Source of the DNA: Candidatus Bathyarchaeota archaeon
GTDB taxonomy: Archaea; Thermoproteota; Bathyarchaeia; Bathyarchaeales; Bathycorpusculaceae
Reading direction: 5' to 3'
Length of the DNA: 64,000 nucleotides
Assembly (NCBI GenBank): GCA_963717465.1
Contig: OY970340.1
Coordinates: 2,464,001 to 2,528,000, forward strand
Position numbers and translations under genes: made by a program. Below, piece after piece: positions 12,762-61,015 of the stretch (within the stretch, counting starts at the first letter, position 1; the number at the start of each line of letters is the position of its first letter). Under the pieces are notes generated by a model that made no database searches, was not told the DNA's origin, and worked only from the letters and a program-made list of their open reading frames with translations.

Positions 12762-14636
12762 ATGCAAATACCAAATACTCATAATTCCACTAGCGAGATT
12801 GCACTTTCTAGCAACGAAATAGACTATGAACAAATATTCGAGAACAGCATGAGCGCTTTTGGTTACTGTAAAATGCTCTTTGATAGTAACGGAAAACCAG
12901 TCGACTACGTGTATCTCCAAGTTAACAGTGCAATTGAAAAAATCTTCGGATTAAAAAAATCCGAAATGATCGGGAAAAGAAGTTCAGAGGTAACACCAGA
13001 TGCTTTTAAACAGCATCCTGAAATACTCGAAATTTCAGGCAGAGTTGCTTTAACAAGAAAACCTGAAGAATTTGAACTATTTTTTGAATACAGTAATATT
13101 TGGTTGTATATTTCAATTTTTAGCCCTAAGAAGAACCATATTATCTTCATTATCGATAATATAACTAAGCGCAAGAATTACGAAGCTGAATTGAAAAGCA
13201 GCTTAGAACGATTTTTAGATTTAGCTAATTCCCTTCCAGACATAGTTTTTGAAATAGACCTGAATGGCAAAACAACTTATGTTAATCAAAGCACATTTGA
13301 AATGACTGGTTACACACGAGAGGATATAGACAAAGGATACTTTAACGAAGAATTCTTCACTCCAGAATATCTGGAAAAAGCTAGAAAAGAGTTTGCAAAA
13401 GTAATAGAAACTGCCACAACTACAACACAAGAGTATGTATTGAGGAAAAAAGACGGCACTAAATTTAATGCAATAATAAAAGCAGTCCCAATTAAAGTTA
13501 ATGGAAAGATTGTCGGATTAAGAGGCATTGCCAGTGATGTCACTGAACAGAAAAAAGCTACGGAAACTCTTGTTTTTCAAAGCCAATTGCTTGAATCTGT
13601 CGGACAAGCATTAATTGCGGCGGATAAAAACAGAATTATTCGTTACTGGAACAAAGGAGCAGAGAATCTTTACGGATGGACTGCAGAAGAAACTCTTGGA
13701 AAGAGTATTGACGAAGTTTTAAAGAGCGGCTTTTCTAAAGAACAAATTGACGAGATTTACAATCGTTTTATTTTAGGTGCAAGTTGGTCTAGTGAAAGTC
13801 GCATAAAAAATCGGGATGGGAATAAGGTACCAGTAATAGTCACTATTAACCCCGTATTTAATACTGCAGGCAAGTACATCGGCTCGATAAGTGTCTACAC
13901 TGATATAACTAATCAAAAGAAAATAGAGAAATTACTCGCAGGTTATGTTGAAGAATATGCTTTGGCAACAAAAAAAATTAAAGACTTGAATGAGAAACTT
14001 AAGGTAATTGCCAGCTTAACAAGACATGACGTACGTAACAAACTTGGTGTCTTGAAGGGCTACATGTATATGTTAAAAAAGAAAGTTTCAGATAACGAAG
14101 CAGCAGTAAAGTATTTGAGTAAAATGGATGAAGCCACAAAGCAATTGCTGGATATTTTGGAGTTTGAAAGAGTTTATGAACAAATCGGTTCAGAAGAACC
14201 CGAGTATGCGAATGTTGAAAAGTTTTTTGCTGAAGCATGCGCGCTAATATCTGATTTCAAAGGCATAAACCTGGAATGTGAATGCGACGGGTTGGAAGTG
14301 TTGGCGGATTCTTTGCTGCGTCAACTACTGTATAATTTGATGGATAACACAATAAAGTACGGCGAAAAAACAACTTTGATCCGGCTTTACTGCAAAAAAG
14401 ACGCAGAATCGATGCTGCTCATCTATGAAGATGATGGAAATGGGATGACTGATGAAGTTAGGTCTCATCTTTTTGAGAAAGGCTTTGGCAAAGGAACTGG
14501 TTTTGGCCTCTACATGATAAAACGCATAATTGAAACCTACGGTTGGAACATAGAAGAAAACGGCAAACTAGGCACCGGCGCCAGATTCACAATGAAAATA
14601 CCACAAAACAAGTTTAAACTTAAGGAAAATAGTTAA
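12762..14636 (+). CDS. Multi-PAS sensor histidine kinase
   Basis: Three PAS-like repeats; RHDVRNKL H-box; NLMDN, EDDGNG, GTGFGL. Confidence 0.92.
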   Translation: MQIPNTHNSTSEIALSSNEIDYEQIFENSMSAFGYCKMLFDSNGKPVDYVYLQVNSAIEKIFGLKKSEMIGKRSSEVTPDAFKQHPEILEISGRVALTRKPEEFELFFEYSNIWLYISIFSPKKNHIIFIIDNITKRKNYEAELKSSLERFLDLANSLPDIVFEIDLNGKTTYVNQSTFEMTGYTREDIDKGYFNEEFFTPEYLEKARKEFAKVIETATTTTQEYVLRKKDGTKFNAIIKAVPIKVNGKIVGLRGIASDVTEQKKATETLVFQSQLLESVGQALIAADKNRIIRYWNKGAENLYGWTAEETLGKSIDEVLKSGFSKEQIDEIYNRFILGASWSSESRIKNRDGNKVPVIVTINPVFNTAGKYIGSISVYTDITNQKKIEKLLAGYVEEYALATKKIKDLNEKLKVIASLTRHDVRNKLGVLKGYMYMLKKKVSDNEAAVKYLSKMDEATKQLLDILEFERVYEQIGSEEPEYANVEKFFAEACALISDFKGINLECECDGLEVLADSLLRQLLYNLMDNTIKYGEKTTLIRLYCKKDAESMLLIYEDDGNGMTDEVRSHLFEKGFGKGTGFGLYMIKRIIETYGWNIEENGKLGTGARFTMKIPQNKFKLKENS

Positions 14637-22050: not shown

Positions 22051-23919
22051 ATGCAAACGACCCGAATAAACAAAAAAATCGGAAAAAAATTGCAATTAGA
22101 GAAAGGAGTGAAATGCGAATCTTTATTTGAAAACATGCTTGACGGTTTTGCCTATTGCAAAATGGTTTTTGGTTCTCAGGGCAAACCTGTTGATTTCATT
22201 TGTTTGCAAATTAACGATGCTTTATTAAAACTCACTGGAATAAAGAAATCTGAAATACTTGGAAAGAGAGTCATTGAAGCAATTCCGAGAATAAAACAGG
22301 AATACCCCGAATTATTTGAGATTTACAGCAGAGTTGCCTTAACTGGAAAAGCGGAGAAAGCCGAATTTTTCTTCAAGCGGCTAAACATGTGGTTGTACTT
22401 TTCAGTTTACAGTCCAAAGAAAGGCTACTTTGTCGCAATATTCGAGAATATAACTGAGCGTAAAAACACTGAAGCTGCTCTGAAAAGTGACGCTGAACGG
22501 TTTACAGCTTTAGCAAATTCTTTGCCTGAAATAATTTTTGAAACAGACGCGAATGGAAAAACAACTTTCGTAAATCAAATTGCTTTTGAAACTACTGGTT
22601 ACACACAGGAAGATATCAACAAAGGATTTCAAGAGTTGATTGCTCCAGAAGATTTTGAAAAAGCTAGAAAAGACTTTGCAAGTGCAATGGTAAATTCTTC
22701 AACTACAACCAATGAGTACGTGTTCAGTAAGAAGGATGGTAGCAGATTTAACGCGATTATAAAAGCAGTGCCAATTAAATCTAGCAGCAACGTTGTTGGA
22801 TTAAGGGGTATTGTTACCGATATTACTGAACAGAAAAGAATGAACGAAACTCTTGTTTTTCAAAGTCAACTGCTTGAAGCTGTCGGGCAAGCCTTAATTG
22901 CGACAGATAAAGACAATGTTATTCGTTACTGGAATAAAGGAGCTGAAAATCTTTACGGGTGGACCGCAGAAGAGGTTCTGGGAAAAAATGTTGATGAATT
23001 TTTAACGACTGAGGTAATTAAAAAACAGATAACTATAGCCTTGGACCGGTTCCTTTCAGGCGAAAGCTGGTCTGCTGAAATTCAAATTAAAGACCGTTAT
23101 GGCGAAATGTTTCCTGTAATTGTCACGATCAGTCCTGTTTTTAACAAGAGCGGCGAATTCGTAGGGTCGATAAGTGCCTACACTGACATAACAGATCAAA
23201 AGAGCGTAGAGCTTGACCTCAAAAACTACGTTAACGAAAATGCTAAGGCAACAAAGAAAATAAAAGAGTTAAATGAAAAACTCCGAGTAATTGCCAGCTT
23301 AACAAGACACGATATCAGAAATAAACTCGGGGTTTTAAACGGGTACATATACCTGCTCAAAAAACAAATTTCAGATAACGAAATCGCAACGAAGCATTTA
23401 GCTAAAATGGATGAAGCCTCAAAACAATTGCTGACCATTTTGGAATTTGAGAGGGTTTATGAACAAATCGGTTCTGAAGAACTCGTTTACGTGAATGTTG
23501 AAAAATTCTTCGCTGAAGCTTCCGCGCTAGTATCTGACCGCAAAGACATAAATTTTGACTGCAACTGCGAAGGATTAGAAGTATTAGCTGACTCTTTATT
23601 GCGCCAATTATTGTATAACTTAATGGATAATACATTAAAATACGGAGAAAAAACTACTCTAATCACTCTTCATTTCCAAAGAAGCGAGAAGTCCCTTCTT
23701 CTCATCTACGAGGATAATGGAGTGGGAATGACCGATGATGTTAGATCTCATCTTTTTGAGAAAGGCTTTGGCAAAGGAACTGGGTTTGGCCTTTACATGA
23801 TAAAACGCATAATTGAAGCCTACGGCTGGAGTATAGAAGAAAACGGAAAATTAGGTGTCGGCGCCAAGTTTACAATGAGAATACCAAAAAACAAGTTTAG
23901 GCTGAAGAGAGATGTCTAA
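22051..23919 (+). CDS. Multi-PAS sensor histidine kinase, paralog of 12762-14636
   Basis: Same architecture; RHDIRNKL; long shared DNA stretches. Confidence 0.92.
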   Translation: MQTTRINKKIGKKLQLEKGVKCESLFENMLDGFAYCKMVFGSQGKPVDFICLQINDALLKLTGIKKSEILGKRVIEAIPRIKQEYPELFEIYSRVALTGKAEKAEFFFKRLNMWLYFSVYSPKKGYFVAIFENITERKNTEAALKSDAERFTALANSLPEIIFETDANGKTTFVNQIAFETTGYTQEDINKGFQELIAPEDFEKARKDFASAMVNSSTTTNEYVFSKKDGSRFNAIIKAVPIKSSSNVVGLRGIVTDITEQKRMNETLVFQSQLLEAVGQALIATDKDNVIRYWNKGAENLYGWTAEEVLGKNVDEFLTTEVIKKQITIALDRFLSGESWSAEIQIKDRYGEMFPVIVTISPVFNKSGEFVGSISAYTDITDQKSVELDLKNYVNENAKATKKIKELNEKLRVIASLTRHDIRNKLGVLNGYIYLLKKQISDNEIATKHLAKMDEASKQLLTILEFERVYEQIGSEELVYVNVEKFFAEASALVSDRKDINFDCNCEGLEVLADSLLRQLLYNLMDNTLKYGEKTTLITLHFQRSEKSLLLIYEDNGVGMTDDVRSHLFEKGFGKGTGFGLYMIKRIIEAYGWSIEENGKLGVGAKFTMRIPKNKFRLKRDV

Positions 23920-24461
23920 ATTAATCTTTGACAAATATTGCATATTGAAGGAATCAGAAGGTTTAGCATTGAATTCTTTGCTACCTAATTCGAGTTTAGG
24001 CTAAAAAGGGCAGCGCCACATTGGTGTTGAAAAAATTTGAAAAATGCAATTATAAATTAATTAATAACCATAATAATCTATTTTGTAGCACAAATTCGAA
24101 TTAAAGTATAATTTAGCTTAAATATTCTGAATGTCAGCTACTATTTCGCGCTCGTTTACCAAACCGTGCGCTATTCACCTCAAGGTGGTGGCTAAAGGAG
24201 AGCCAAACTCCCAACCTTTAGTCACTACCTTCAATACAATTTTAGCGTTAACACGTTTCAATTTTTATTTTTTCTATTATTTCCAAGATATAATGCTTTG
24301 TCAGGTTAAAATTAGCAAGTTTCAGAAGAACTGTGTTGGAAATATCACTCATACGGAGCATTGGCACTTAATGGAGACGATAATTCTTTCTGAACTTTGC
24401 CGTGACAGTCGGGAACTAAAAAAGAAGTTAAAAAAAGAATATAGGATAACTATTTACTTGT

Positions 24462-24869
24462 CTACTCTGGTAGACCTGGAAATTCGCCTTTAATCTGCTG
24501 ATAAACCTTCTTTAATGGCTCTTCAACTGGCATCATGAAACCCAGATCACCCAGGTCACCCGACAACAGTGACATGGCTCCTTGCGAAAACAACGCGTCA
24601 GCACCCATCTTACCAGACCACCAATCATTTAGGTATTTAAGCTTAAGATACTGAATCGCCGCATTAGCCTCATCAACACTACCCTTATTCACAACCCACT
24701 TCTTACCCTTCGAACCAATCTGCCAAACAACATCAGGAACATCACCAATACTCAACTCAACAATCATGTCATTCTCCTGATCCTTACACGCATCAATAAT
24801 AGCAGGATCATCAGCAAGCTTAGAATACAACTTATACGCGAAATTCATCAACTTATCCTCATAAGACAT
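24462..24869 (-). CDS. SCP2 sterol-carrier-like protein
   Basis: ~135 aa; W..GKM.A..LF.QG.M...SGD pattern resembles SCP2. Confidence 0.6.
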   Translation of the reverse strand: MSYEDKLMNFAYKLYSKLADDPAIIDACKDQENDMIVELSIGDVPDVVWQIGSKGKKWVVNKGSVDEANAAIQYLKLKYLNDWWSGKMGADALFSQGAMSLLSGDLGDLGFMMPVEEPLKKVYQQIKGEFPGLPE

Positions 24870-29366: not shown

Positions 29367-29762
29367 TTAGTATTCAACACCGGGTAGTGTTTTTGAAACT
29401 TCGGATAAACGACCCAACGATTTCTGGTGCTTCATTGCCTTCATCATGTTGAGCTTTAGTTTAGCTTTCTGCGCGTTAATTTCGCCTTTGGCAATACCCG
29501 CATGCATAGCATAAGTAGCGGTGGTACCAAATTCTGTTTGTTTGGAACCAAGATCTGCGGCTTTGGCCTCGCTAGCGGTAACTTTTCCGTTCTCAATAGT
29601 TAGGAGAAAAGCTTTCGGCTGCCCATCTGGACCTAGCACATCAGAGAATACATACATGAAATTTGTAGAAAGCGCTGCTTTCTGAAAAGCTTCATCTTTG
29701 TTCATGGCGTCAGCGTACATCTTATAATATTCTATTGTTCCAAATTTTACCAACATATTCAC
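29367..29762 (-). CDS. SCP2-like protein
   Basis: FGT.EY...Y..A.N.D...ENGK...ATY......GEIN pattern; GGAGGTG near start (exact start uncertain). Confidence 0.65.
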   Translation of the reverse strand: MNMLVKFGTIEYYKMYADAMNKDEAFQKAALSTNFMYVFSDVLGPDGQPKAFLLTIENGKVTASEAKAADLGSKQTEFGTTATYAMHAGIAKGEINAQKAKLKLNMMKAMKHQKSLGRLSEVSKTLPGVEY

Positions 29763-30127: not shown

Positions 30128-32440
30128 TTATGGTCCGTACGATCCGATGTTTGCTGAGTACACTTTAGCAAGCTGAGATTTGAAATTCCAGGCTCCAAGT
30201 TCAGCGCTAAGATGCTCTGGGCTATCTGGAATTGTGACATTGATATTCCAGTCTGTCCAGCCATAGAGCGTTGGCTCCTCAGCTGGCAATTCAGGACGCC
30301 ACCAACCATGCTCAGGAGACACAATCTTTGGATTAACACCAAAATCATACCGCACCGTCTGCATACACCTACCAAGCGGCGTCTCAATGTAGATCCATTC
30401 ACCATCGCCAATGCCCATGTTACGTGCCGTCAAAGGATGCATTTTTACGCGAGGGACTGGACGCAAATGCCGCATCAAGCTGAGATGTCGATGCTCGCCA
30501 TGCTGAGCCTCTTGGAACCGTGCACCGCTACACAGAATCATAGGATAATCCTTAGCGATGTCAGGCGCACTAATCGGAGTCCAAGGATTCTCGACATAAT
30601 ACGGTATCGGGTCATACTCCAACTGCTCCAGTATGGTGGAGTAAAGCGCAACTTTACCCTCAGGAGTTCCAAAGCCTCTGATCTGTCCAGTCTCAGGATC
30701 AAGCTCCTCATACTTCTTAAATCTAGGTTCATACGGCGGAACACCCTTCCACTCCTTTATAACTTGTTTATGCGTCCAGCCAACAGGCTCATAGAACCAG
30801 TCCGCCATCTCCTCTAAAGTTTTCCAAGGCATGGCTGCGTAAGTTTTGTTCTCGCCAACAACTGCAACTGCCAGATCGCGGAATATTATGCTGTCATCTT
30901 TCAGATCCCACAATCCAGGAATTTTCTGAGGCAGCGCCCGATCACCTGCAATCTCAAACTCAACTGATCCCTGAGTTGAAACAGTCCCATAACCAGACGG
31001 CCTCTCAAACTGACTCGTACCAGGCAACACATAATCTGCAAGCATAGCCTCAGGAGTCATCGAAGCACACTCAATGTACACAAACAACTCAAGCTTCTTT
31101 AGAGCCTCATAAACCTTCTTTATGTTCGCATAACACCTCATTGGACCACATTCACCAGCAAACATCGCTTTAACTGGATAGGGCTTGCCAGTCAAAATCG
31201 TATCTATTGTACTTGGGAAATGTGCACCTACTGGTCCAGCATACCCAGCACCCTTCCAGTATCCTTGAGCCGTCTCTGACGCTTGAATAAGACCACCACC
31301 ACTAAAGCCTCCCATCCTGTATGTCTCGCCGCCTATCTGTTTTCCCCAATCGCTGTTAGTCCCGCTAATTGCTGTTTGGAACGCCTCACAAGCAGTGTGG
31401 AATTTGGGTCTTGCATGTAGGTATTCGCCGCCTTCAATGTCGACGTTGCCAGTTAACGCCGGTAGCATATATTTGGATCGAACGTTGTTCATGGAGTTTC
31501 TACCACCTGATTCAATGGCGTAGCCATATGGGAAAGAACATGGACTATTTTCAACTATGAAGTGAGCAGCTTCCCTAATCTTCTCAGCTGGAATCCAAGT
31601 AATTTCCGCAACCTTCTCAGGAGTGTACTGCTTAACACGTTCTTTTAGCTTGTCAAAGCCAAAGCACCATTTCTCCACAAAGTCATGATTATACAAATCC
31701 TCCTCGATGAGAACATTCAGCATAGCCAGCAAAAATGCAGTATCAGTGCCAGGTCTAATGGCCAACCATTTTTCAGAAATCCGAGCGGTCTCAGTAAAAC
31801 GTGGATCTATGCAGAGCATTTTCGCGCCTCCCTCCGTTGCGGCAACGAAACCTGGCCACGCATATGTCCAAGACTCCATAGCATTATTACCAATATTAAA
31901 TATACCCTTAGTCTTACCTGGAATCATCATTGCGTATGTTAATCCCACGCCATAGCCTAATCCTAAGGCTGAGTACGTGGGTCCGGCTCATTGCTGAGCT
32001 GCAGCCGACGCAAAGTTCGGACTGCCCGCTAACATGTGGAAGAAGCCAAGTCCTATGCCCAAGTTTGCAGCTCGACCGGTGCCAAAAAAGCCGCATAGTG
32101 ATTCGCCACCGTACTTTGCAATAAGTTCCTTCGTTTTAGCGCCTATTTCACTACATGCCTGCTCCCAAGAGATTCTTTGCCATTTACCTTCACCTCGTTT
32201 GCCAATGCGTTTAATTGGGTACATCGGCCTATCCTTATGGTAAATGTACTCTACACTGTATTTCCACTTCTGACAATAAGGCCCAGGATTAAAAGGGCTT
32301 TCCCAGTCAGGCTCAACCTTGGTTATTTTACCGTTCTCAACAGTCTCAAGCAATTGACAAGATCCAGTACTGCAAAAACCGCAAACACATCTATGCAATC
32401 CATCGTATGCTTTTGGGTCTTCAATTTTAGTTTCACTCAT
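30128..32440 (-). CDS. Mo/W-bisPGD oxidoreductase (DMSO-reductase superfamily, acetylene-hydratase-like), 770 aa read through in-frame TGA at codon 151 (probable selenocysteine)
   Basis: The two track ORFs share a frame and are separated only by TGA 31990-31988; N-terminal CGFC...C...C Fe-S motif; IDPR, IRPGTD, DYVLP, GKV.LYS, V...HGWW motifs. Confidence 0.88.
31944..31981 (-). promoter_or_regulatory. Candidate SECIS hairpin just 3' of the in-frame UGA
   Basis: CCCACGU/GCGUGGG lower stem, AGCCU/AGGCU upper stem, G-containing loop UAGGAUU starting 23 nt after UGA. Confidence 0.6.
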
Positions 32441-32491
32441 TATTTTCTCTCCTATTTAACGAATACAAATTTTGATATATGTGGTCTAGTT

Positions 32492-32572
32492 GATATTAAG
32501 CTAGATTATAAGCCAATTTTAGATTTTGCGACAAAAAAGGACATTTCAGTAAATAACATCGACATTATTGCA
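32492..32572 (-). promoter_or_regulatory. Conserved promoter/operator element, copy 4 (oxidoreductase)
   Basis: TTATA 32506, GCGACA 32528, ACATTATTGC 32562. Confidence 0.8.
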
Positions 32573-32649
32573 GAACAAATATTTCTCCTAACACAATGTT
32601 GACCTCACACTTTTTTAATTACTAATGCAGCGTAAAAGCAGAATTAAAA

Positions 32650-32870
32650 ATAACGAAGGCATCCTAGCGGGCAATGGCACAGACAATTCAGTGAGCATTA
32701 CTTTCTCATAGCCTACAGGTGGCTAGAGAAAAGGGGATTGAGCTTCTCTATAGCCACCATCTAAAGGTGAACAGGTTACTTGTTTGACATCCCCATCCCT
32801 GTCATAGCAGAATTCGACCATCAGGCGAATTTTCCTGCTCAGGTTTACCCACTTTAAGTTCCCGTTTTAT
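32650..32870 (-). ncRNA. Candidate structured non-coding RNA of unknown family
   Basis: GC-richer, multi-hairpin stretch with no ORF, between promoter copy 5 and a T-tract. Confidence 0.55.
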
Positions 32871-32888
32871 TTAGCATGAAGGATCATT

Positions 32889-32971
32889 GATATTTAAATT
32901 AAATTATGAAACTAGTTGCAGTTTTTGCAACAAAATAGGCATTCATGTAATTGTTAGCCTACATTATTGCA
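32889..32971 (-). promoter_or_regulatory. Conserved promoter/operator element, copy 5 (upstream of candidate ncRNA, divergent from regulator)
   Basis: TTATG 32904, GCAACA 32927, ACATTATTGC 32961. Confidence 0.75.
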
Positions 32972-33088
32972 GAGAGAATAGTTTTTATCAACATAATTGT
33001 TCAATTTATTATCTGCTCATATGGATATCGGCTTTTGCTAGCATATGAAATACAAAAACTTAAAACTGCCTTGTACATAGTATAGGGC

Positions 33089-33697
33089 ATGAGCCAATTT
33101 TTTAAAAGGCAAGATACCTCAGACATGAAAGTACCTGTAAACTTGAAAGTCCTATTTGCCCTTCTGGCGTTAGGTGGTAAAAGCGACAGGGAGATTGCTA
33201 AAAAACTAGGTATAAACAATTCGACATTATCTAGAAGAAGAAAGAAGCTTGAAGAAGAGGGTTACATAAAAGAGTATACATTATTGCCCGATTTCCACAA
33301 AATGGGGCTTGATATTATCGTTTTTTCATCCTGCTCAACTTCTGATGTGGTACCGACAGAAAATTCTAAGTATGTTCAAGAATTAGTCAATAAAATTCCC
33401 GAAATGCTGTGTCTTTTTGAAGACCATGATGTAGCGGGAACAAACTGGTTTGCCGTAACTGTACATAGGAATTATGATGAATTTGTAGAATTATACAAAA
33501 ATGTTATGGACGAAATAACATCCATGCATTTACATGTGCCACGTGTAGAATCGAAACGCCTCGTATTTCATACGAACAAACTGTATCCAAAACCTTTCTC
33601 ACTGCGACAATTGAATGTTATATTTCAAAACAAGAGAAGTTTTGAGCAACCTCAGCGCAGGAAGCATGACACTAAAATAACAACTGCTGATGCCTAA
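33089..33697 (+). CDS. Lrp/AsnC-family transcriptional regulator
   Basis: SDREIAKKLGI..STLSRRRKKLEEEGYIKEYT..PDF.K.G HTH. Confidence 0.88.
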   Translation: MSQFFKRQDTSDMKVPVNLKVLFALLALGGKSDREIAKKLGINNSTLSRRRKKLEEEGYIKEYTLLPDFHKMGLDIIVFSSCSTSDVVPTENSKYVQELVNKIPEMLCLFEDHDVAGTNWFAVTVHRNYDEFVELYKNVMDEITSMHLHVPRVESKRLVFHTNKLYPKPFSLRQLNVIFQNKRSFEQPQRRKHDTKITTADA

Positions 33698-60850: not shown

Positions 60851-61015
60851 TGGTGCCGTTCGTCCAAACAGACGCTAATTCTGCTTGTGGGACGGGATTC
60901 GAGCCCGCGACCTCTGGCTTTAGGCGTTTAGCCCCTTTAGTCTCCAGATTTCTCATCTGGGTTTGTCCTACCAGATTATGAGTCTGGCGCCCTGGCCAGG
61001 CTAGGCTACCCCGGC
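60851..61015 (-). tRNA. tRNA-Met(CAT), elongator type, with three BHB introns (37/38, 45/46, 68/69)
   Basis: Exons 61015-60977, 60949-60942, 60911-60889 and 60858-60851 join into a full cloverleaf, GCCGGGG/CCCCGGC-A-CCA. Confidence 0.88.

Follow-up and report, generated by a model that had tools for sequence, protein, structure and literature searches.

The question raised by this locus is what is transcribed from a promoter that points at some 220 nt of DNA, with no credible open reading frame, upstream of an oxidoreductase gene. The locus lies in the window, the 64,000-nt stretch analysed here, which covers positions 2464001-2528000 of an archaeal genome assembled as one contig of 3.05 Mb; coordinates below are those of the window unless they are given as genome positions. 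An earlier note had proposed a single, intricately folded non-coding RNA of a new kind, with a 5′ leader, a UTR-type SECIS element or a leader peptide as alternatives. We refer to the predicted small RNA at 32645-32868 (minus strand), downstream of promoter copy 5, as the focal RNA.

Promoter copy 5 (32885-32997, minus strand) matches the regulon promoter profile with an E-value of 4.4e-15 when copy 5 is in the training set and of 4e-10 against a profile built without it, and its TATA-like TTAAATAT lies at 32897-32890. Across the genome the profile finds 52 sites at E ≤ 5, and 46 extend to the end of the TATA box at E < 1.1. The leave-one-out score supports copy 5 as a true copy of this roughly 46-copy regulon promoter, pointing at the 220-nt stretch. 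Both ends of the transcript (about 225 nt) are predicted from sequence. Two DNA sequencing runs aligned to the region leave 32507-32840 without coverage. The start was set near 32868 because the 5′ hairpins in most of the short siblings described below begin 28-31 nt past TTAAATAT. The T-tract reported before promoter copy 4 is indeed present at 32653-32646 (minus strand), as a probable archaeal-type terminator; T-rich tracts lie at most 90 nt after eight of the ten full-length family members, and a bacterial-type terminator was looked for at the focal RNA and not found. Promoter copy 4 (32489-32599, minus strand; E 9.6e-21 with copy 4 in the training set) follows and belongs to the oxidoreductase. 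By its sequence, the focal RNA thus has the intergenic position, own promoter and terminator-like tract expected of archaeal small RNAs that mask ribosome-binding sites.

The regulon that shares this promoter contains selenocysteine Mo/W oxidoreductases, MttB/MtmB-like methyltransferases, corrinoid proteins and small proteins. The oxidoreductase downstream of the focal RNA (30128-32440, minus strand; Mo/W-bis-pterin type, Pfam PF00384, PF01568 and PF04879) has an in-frame TGA at codon 151, probably a selenocysteine codon, with an in-gene hairpin at 31981-31943 (shuffle z −3.7; TGA and hairpin together occupy 31990-31943), and MtmB-like, MttB-like and corrinoid genes lie on its 3′ side. The genome encodes SelD, itself with an in-frame TGA, and two tRNA-Sec genes (genome 845693-845779, plus strand, and 2829638-2829725, minus strand), both above the Rfam cut-off; the latter sits within a regulon cluster. 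A hairpin based on CCCACG/CGUGGG is predicted about 6-7 nt past the UGA in all nine in-frame Mo/W paralogs (z −1.5 to −2.9), although these letters could be kept by protein conservation alone; the tenth paralog is frameshifted. Frameshifts or extra stops also occur in several regulon paralogs (genome 133145, 481034, 2799584 and 2415445), so decayed copies, or errors of assembly, are frequent among its genes. Divergently transcribed from the focal RNA is a winged-helix regulator (33089-33697, plus strand) with about 25 genome-wide matches, many of them paralogs adjoining regulon clusters; it is a putative and likely binder of the repeated promoter. Two small regulon proteins (29367-29762 and 24462-24869, both minus strand) have no Pfam match and may be SCP2-like; the first has ten matches in its own genome.

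Searching the genome with the focal RNA revealed paralogs. Its middle, consisting of UUCACCU and a GGUGGCUAUAG hairpin, is a module of an 11-member family. At its loci T(T/A)(C/A)ACC is followed, after a spacer of 2-5 nt, by a hairpin with the arms GGUGGCUAYAGG / CCURUAGCCACC; one locus is truncated. In the focal RNA the anti-Shine-Dalgarno-like core UUCACCU lies at 32765-32771 (minus strand; T(T/A)(C/A)ACC is kept in 11 of 11), and the hairpin, module 1, at 32718-32758 (minus strand), with arms GGUGGCUAUAGAGAAG and UUUCUCUAGCCACC and loop GCUCAAUCCCC. A second member in the window, of the short one-hairpin type, lies at 24167-24230 (plus strand) behind a weak promoter match at 24024-24127 (E 0.011); it points at the end of the methyltransferase cluster. 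The promoter profile matches upstream of all 11 members, with six of these promoters in its training set and three of the remaining five weak (E 0.064-0.5). In eight members the hairpin lies 39-57 nt from the TATA-like box, in the same orientation as the promoter. Three members carry two modules, namely the focal RNA, whose second is decayed, and the long two-hairpin siblings at genome 125560 and 1217099; the others carry one.

The stem is the conserved element. A covariance model, R2, was built from seven members; it gives two of its training members, the focal hairpin and the member at 24167-24230, 73 and 76 bits, respectively, the three other full-length members outside the training set 33-52 bits and the truncated one 22 bits. 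Among the seven, 95% of 84 cells are paired and three of the 12 pairs are changed on both sides, with a score reached by one of 500 shuffles; this significance is overstated, since the members are related paralogs of one genome and the score used a structure derived from the same paralogs. Across 12 family hairpins, three of them trimmed at a register shift, we count 123 Watson-Crick, eight G·U, two A·C and one other cell, and the excess of G·U over A·C leans toward an RNA read from the promoter strand. Identity between members is 0.77-0.88 in core and arms, 0.50 in the loops and 0.61 in the promoters. A shared family peptide was rejected because spacer indels of 1-3 nt break the frame. Module 1 of the focal RNA, the long hairpin of the earlier note (32758-32718), exceeds chance (z −4.7, 0/400 shuffles) and retains 11 of its 12 pairs, one of which has changed from G-C to A-U in this copy only. 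The proposal of the earlier note therefore stands in part: a non-coding, structured RNA with a predicted promoter of its own is supported, but a unique one is not, the RNA being one of 11 paralogs among which only UUCACCU and the hairpin module are conserved.

Rfam 15 returned no match for the focal RNA, either at gathering scores or at E 10, and seven sibling loci had no match at E ≤ 1 either. R2 did not find the family in 119 congeners, and its two matches in 150 genomes of the class both lie within coding sequence. Searches with blastn against 60 relatives gave five matches of 22-33 nt, and pattern scans gave six genome, four metagenome and two viral contig matches; among ten inspected and three scored pattern matches there was one fair hairpin (L039), whose 23 bits belong to a locus chosen by the scan pattern itself and which has no pyrimidine-rich loop. 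Phage and plasmid collections held no family match. Homologs with stem covariation were found as paralogs in one genome, but not in the 119 congeners, and the 5′ hairpin of the focal RNA has no sibling counterpart. The surrounding genes have a similar reach: the oxidoreductase was not found in the 119 congeners at E 1e-100 and the 127-aa small protein (29367-29762) was absent from 400 class genomes, while proteins 65-91% identical are present on contigs of other NCBI records. A search of openly accessible literature returned nothing relevant, among the matches listed, on this family or on small RNAs of this archaeal group. A match of the focal RNA to an ABC-transporter gene, as a possible remnant, was rejected (E 2.4). 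We regard membership of the focal RNA in a new, lineage-restricted, non-coding sibling family as real, and judge from sequence that the family probably has anti-Shine-Dalgarno (anti-SD) action.

The core UUCACCU complements the canonical SD sequence, and the 16S rRNA of this genome ends in GGAUCACCUCCU. The core region of the focal RNA has a complement of at least 9 nt in 26 of 2815 start regions called by a custom script, including an MtmB-like gene over 11 nt, which makes it a generic rather than a regulon-specific seed. With respect to the loops, the 12 family loops were compared with 25 regulon start regions (29 called, five dropped as spurious or mis-started and one added by hand). Their summed match is 59.8, versus 54.4 ± 1.1 for SD-strength-matched sets (0/2000). 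The signal comes from three loops, which carry AUCUCCUA and match the leaders of Mo/W selenoenzymes. At 9 nt or more, 11 of 30, six of nine and five of 32 matches of these loops are regulon-family starts, of which there are 56 among 2819. The first of these, complementary to 30 of the 2819 starts, reaches eight of the ten Mo/W enzymes with its 11 regulon-family matches. The targets are paralogs, so these matches are not independent. In the family, complementarity to ribosome-binding sites in sequence predicted to be exposed is seen in these three sibling loops and, generically, in the core.

The other nine loops, including that of the focal RNA, show no significant regulon enrichment among the 2819 starts. 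The best regulon matches of the focal loop are 7 nt long (3 of 88 such matches, p 0.25), in a loop predicted to be mostly masked; its mean match gives p 0.015 against matched starts and 0.07 against shuffled loops. The rare GGGAU, present in 69 of 2819 starts, occurs in two of the six genes of the RNA's own cluster (p 0.008 in a post hoc test), but a family-matched test showed no preference for targets in the own cluster (p 0.25 for the focal loop, 0.69 for all loops). Also rejected were an 11-nt match to the gene start at genome 2807712, a gene without the regulon promoter, a family-wide pairing of each loop with its own leader, and the ranking of targets by free duplex energy, which was too noisy. 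Antisense masking of ribosome-binding sites is therefore well motivated by the sequences for the family, but weakly for the focal RNA, since its loop is among the nine without enrichment and the signal comes from three siblings. Repression of targets, as opposed to their stabilisation, is suggested by the position of the match. Two further complementarities were observed. Ten nucleotides of the start region at genome 1137419 are complementary to the loop AAACUCCCAA of the member at 24167-24230. The start region of an MtmB-like gene at genome 2173668-2173700 repeats the family core in reverse complement, exactly over 13 nt for two siblings and, by eye, over about 18 bp with one bulge for one of these; it may be a best target or else the sequence from which the core derives.

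Targets are known for few archaeal small RNAs, and the literature search returned none for this archaeal group. The sRNA154 of Methanosarcina mazei is intergenic, is expressed with the pathway it regulates and has two stem-loops, one loop carrying an anti-RBS that masks glnA2, and sRNA41 and sRNA162 mask ribosome-binding sites (PMC5867862, PMC3510493); the same text describes sRNA154 as stabilising some targets (PMC5867862). The focal family has no sequence or Rfam likeness to these RNAs. It differs from them in comprising 11 paralogs with a constant stem, exchangeable loops and a second, conserved anti-SD seed outside the hairpin, in a single lineage. Also similar are the Cuckoo RNAs of Alphaproteobacteria (alpha-r14; RSs0680, CcsR), which are paralogous modular hairpin RNAs with anti-SD loops and a hairpin number that varies, with two to four adjacent modules (PMC4615179, PMC3346310). 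Cuckoo RNAs keep the loop CCUCCUCCC and vary the stems, whereas the archaeal family keeps the stem and varies the loop, and there is no homology; CCUCCUCCC is absent from the family loops. C-rich seeds directed against SD sequences are also found in the staphylococcal RsaE and RNAIII and in the Listeria LhrC siblings, which occur as sibling copies. The staphylococcal C-rich RsaA has a UCCC-type unpaired seed against the SD (PMC3961350). All four are bacterial, without a conserved stem sequence of this kind and without homology. Most plausibly, by analogy, the focal RNA would work like sRNA154/41/162 and the Cuckoo RNAs while being a member of neither group, and the logic of masking ribosome-binding sites is already known.

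The reading that we tentatively favour from the sequence is that the focal RNA is a stand-alone, trans-acting anti-SD regulatory RNA, one of 11 siblings that damp regulon mRNAs. It builds on the observed promoter, family, conserved stem and anti-SD character of the core, and on the observed regulon-specific complementarity of three sibling loops. The RNA would be transcribed from the same promoter type as the lineage-specific regulon, and the family fold would expose two pyrimidine-rich seeds, UUCACCU before the stem and a variable loop (AUCCCC in the focal RNA) on top of it. These seeds may pair with the SD regions of mRNAs in vivo, and pairing would most likely damp translation, giving an incoherent feed-forward brake on the regulon. 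For this the focal RNA would have to adopt the family fold often enough to be active. Two Lsm genes in the genome also fit this reading. Such a family, young, born inside one expanded regulon and combining an unchanging stem with exchangeable anti-SD loops, would illustrate the origin and divergence of small RNAs, apparently from a promoter, a dead gene start and a hairpin module, and the focal RNA would catch the process midway, either decaying or becoming switch-like.

The main competitor accepts anti-SD action for the family and takes the focal RNA for a decaying, largely inactive copy, in which loss of the second hairpin has left a spare arm that misfolds the first hairpin, and whose 5′ part is a neutral gene-start remnant. 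We consider this unlikely, but it accounts for several peculiarities of the copy. Over its whole length the fold is not beyond chance (z about −1.5, the weakest among full-length members; others −2.9 to −7.6), and the family stem has a probability of 0.26, compared with 1.0 in the nine other full-length members. Alignment with the two two-hairpin siblings places the decayed module 2 at 32670-32716 (minus strand), with several indels and a loop unlike the AUCUCCUAAUU seed of the sibling. The 5′ arm of module 2 (32713-32701) is able to draw the module 1 3′ arm into an alternative helix, pairing with its variant sequence over 12 bp (alternative hairpin −13.5 kcal/mol, 1/500 shuffles), so that the predicted MFE structure leaves the family hairpin and hides both seeds. 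In this fold B, GGGGAU pairs with AUCCCC, UCACC with GGUGG and the module 1 3′ arm with the module 2 5′ arm. Fold A, the family fold, lies 1.7 kcal/mol above it (−64.8 versus −66.5) and occupies about 12.5% of the nested ensemble at 37 °C, dropping to 1.8% at 25 °C, a share that makes the focal RNA either a switch or a failing copy. The lack of a significant target for the focal loop is also in line with decay. Against decay stand the intact promoter, the pairs retained in module 1 with their G-C to A-U change, and the 5′ hairpin described below, which beats chance. In addition, a 6-bp loop-loop contact between GGGGAU and AUCCCC (duplex −11.1 kcal/mol before loop penalties), which nested models do not score, could favour the family fold.

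Other structural claims for the focal RNA fared unevenly. The proposed closing pair, CGGG at 32864-32861 with CCCG at 32671-32668, is present but not preferred (forced fold −63.7 versus −67.6 kcal/mol); the preferred closing helix is AGUGGGUAA/UUGCCCGCU (p 0.81). A general 5′/3′ closing helix in the family was rejected, no member reaching p < 0.05 with starts set too early. CAGG (32801-32798) and CCUG (32775-32772) are both there, as are the three GCUAU motifs at 32808, 32754 and 32712, two of which are explained as the 5′ arms of modules 1 and 2. For the kissing loop between GGGGAU (32794-32789) and AUCCCC (32738-32733) the letters exist, but the match is within chance and has no sibling support.

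Upstream of the core, the focal RNA carries a copy-specific hairpin at 32798-32843 (minus strand; z −3.8, helices p about 0.9). It contains the AGCAG-GAA-AAUUCG/CGAAUU-CUGCU pairing of the earlier note and exceeds chance at −18.4 kcal/mol (0/500 shuffles, or 1/150 if the best window within the 5′ half may be chosen). Its internal loop, flanked by CUGA (32842-32839) and UAUGA (32806-32802), resembles a k-turn, judged by eye against the k-turn consensus, in its letters, tandem G·A/A·G pairs and 3-nt bulge, but the adjacent C·U and A·C make it imperfect. A bulge-helix-bulge splicing site can be drawn here by eye as a 3-nt bulge and a 4-bp helix, but it was rejected, with the outer helix missing and the MFE structure in another register. 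A box C/D guide was likewise rejected: by eye there is no box C at guide distance, and three candidate guides have at most 8 nt of complement in the rRNA region. A 16-codon GTG…TGA ORF (32802-32852, minus strand) has a weak SD (−4.5 kcal/mol, against a regulon median of −8.4) and is not conserved, so that a leader peptide is unlikely. The 5′ hairpin, GGGGAU and the ORF have no counterpart among the family siblings, and nothing comparative supports them or the k-turn-like loop.

The 5′ segment at 32827-32876 (minus strand) resembles the leader and first codons of MttB-like genes, as the decaying-copy reading would have it. When the 5′ 50 nt or so are compared with 44 regulon leaders, the best four are all MttB-like, and when the segment is ranked against genome starts, five of ten MttB starts fall within the top 49 of 2816 (shuffle p 0.01). 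The same likeness gives p 0.004 and 0.068 in the long sibling pair and 0.45 and 0.91 in two short siblings, and a 235-nt profile does not detect the focal segment. On balance, these rankings suggest that the 5′ part is a decayed MttB-like gene start.

The same two folds admit a reading in which the focal RNA is a switchable anti-SD RNA, with fold B hiding and fold A exposing the seeds and a trigger flipping one into the other. Candidate triggers are L7Ae at the k-turn-like loop, a ribosome on the 16-codon ORF, whose UGA lies just before GGGGAU and would be read in a selenium-dependent way, temperature or a partner RNA. The small energy gap, the masking of both seeds together and the match of the spare arm to the RNA's own variant 3′ arm would fit a switch. 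So would the alternation of the predicted MFE between folds A and B as the transcript grows (calculated with the start set 16 nt too early), the presence of L7Ae-family genes, and an ORF whose UGA ends 7 nt before the fold B helix, near the 6-nt spacing in the genome's selenoprotein genes. We nevertheless regard a switch as quite unlikely, because each ingredient also follows from duplication and decay. The 5′ hairpin, GGGGAU and ORF occur in no sibling, the SD of the ORF is weak and the k-turn imperfect. GGGGAU itself (32789-32794, minus strand), which is SD-like and pairs with the loop AUCCCC in fold B (p 0.83), turns up in 417 of 5000 shuffled 5′ parts, and a match to any loop hexamer in 688 of 5000, that is, 8-14% by chance.

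Little credence is likewise given to the idea that the conserved stem serves as a decoy or handle for proteins, perhaps mimicking or descending from 16S helix 45, and titrates a helix-45-binding or other RNA-binding factor with or without mRNA pairing. The letters of the stem are kept beyond the needs of pairing. The 5′ arm has 133 genome sites with up to two mismatches, and a fitting 3′ arm accompanies 19 of them, namely 16 family matches, helix 45 (L029, genome 1806277-1806314) and two weak others. Helix 45 with its anti-SD tail shares ten of 12 letters of the 5′ arm, seven of nine of the 3′ arm and UCACCU, and its differences from the family stem are compensatory (CG/CG to UA/UA). In a two-arm weight matrix it is the top non-family site, but its lead over the next is small (24.9 versus 23.5 bits), R2 gives it 6 bits, and the plain alignment of members with the 16S tail is unexceptional (sum 190, versus 161 ± 15.5 and a maximum of 224 for other rRNA windows). 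The anti-SD follows the stem in 16S rRNA but precedes it in the family, which has a long variable loop and no GGAA tetraloop. Upstream of the core, likeness to 16S rRNA is seen in one of 11 members, that at genome 1217980, where 11 of the 12 letters of the helix 45 3′ side precede the core. This was a post hoc comparison, and on these sequences a true kinship between stem and helix 45 is rather doubtful.

A more elaborate possibility would combine these elements. The focal RNA would mask itself until selenocysteine-dependent translation of the ORF, or L7Ae, flips it to the family fold and thereby releases the trans-acting brake, on a scaffold perhaps recruited from the 16S 3′ end. Judged from the sequence features above, this is very improbable. 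It would unite sensing and small-RNA functions in a single molecule, for which the literature searched contained no archaeal description.

The reading as a cis-acting element of the oxidoreductase, whether 5′ leader, riboswitch, UTR-type SECIS or leader-peptide attenuator on a read-through transcript, draws on the position of the focal RNA directly upstream of that gene on the same strand. The sibling at genome 1217980 has no T-tract and lies 30 nt before a gene, and the truncated member precedes an ORF, so some members may be leaders. For the focal RNA, a cis role is even harder to sustain, as the T-tract and a full second promoter lie between it and the gene. The oxidoreductase has its own promoter copy 4 and a hairpin right after its UGA, which makes a 5′ SECIS unneeded, and a leader or UTR-type SECIS is disfavoured. 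The nine other sampled Mo/W paralogs have their own start regions, most without a family member directly ahead, and the hairpin after the UGA recurs within all nine in-frame paralogs. UTR-type SECIS elements, archaeal or eukaryote/Loki, are marked by a GAA/A loop whose GC upper stem is short, or by an AUGA/GA core that leads into helix II. In the focal RNA, judged by eye, no A stands opposite the GAA bulge, and the G·A tandem points away from the apical loop; with the predicted terminator and promoter in between, the focal RNA is predicted to lie outside the selenoprotein's own mRNA. Riboswitch models (cobalamin, Moco/Wco, lysine, SAM, TPP and FMN) gave two chance matches, with E 3.2 and 7.4, both outside 32650-32870, and Rfam has no riboswitch or SECIS match to the focal RNA at E 10.

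Least credible is that the hairpins are DNA-level palindromes (a miniature mobile element, REP-like repeat or operator) without a functional RNA, for although they are inverted repeats whose ends are conserved and which, of the genomes searched, occur in only one, they occupy a fixed position behind one promoter type in all 11 cases, where a mobile element would show varied insertion sites, always share its orientation, keep the 39-57 nt distance in eight cases despite a variable spacer (9-40 nt), favour G·U over A·C by eight to two and have no match in phage or plasmid collections and, by eye, no transposase among nearby ORF translations.

Several observations beyond the focal RNA were made along the way. 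A sensor-kinase-like gene segment, so labelled by eye, is duplicated at 13095-14243 and 22384-23526 (both plus strand), with 73-78% identity. A tRNA with a long intron at 60889-61011 (minus strand) is found by Rfam and missed by ARAGORN. Regulon promoter copies at genome 126099, 2796499, 849834 and 118613 are followed by neither a called gene nor a family hairpin and may possibly drive further small RNAs; downstream of the first lie another short hairpin and a T-run.
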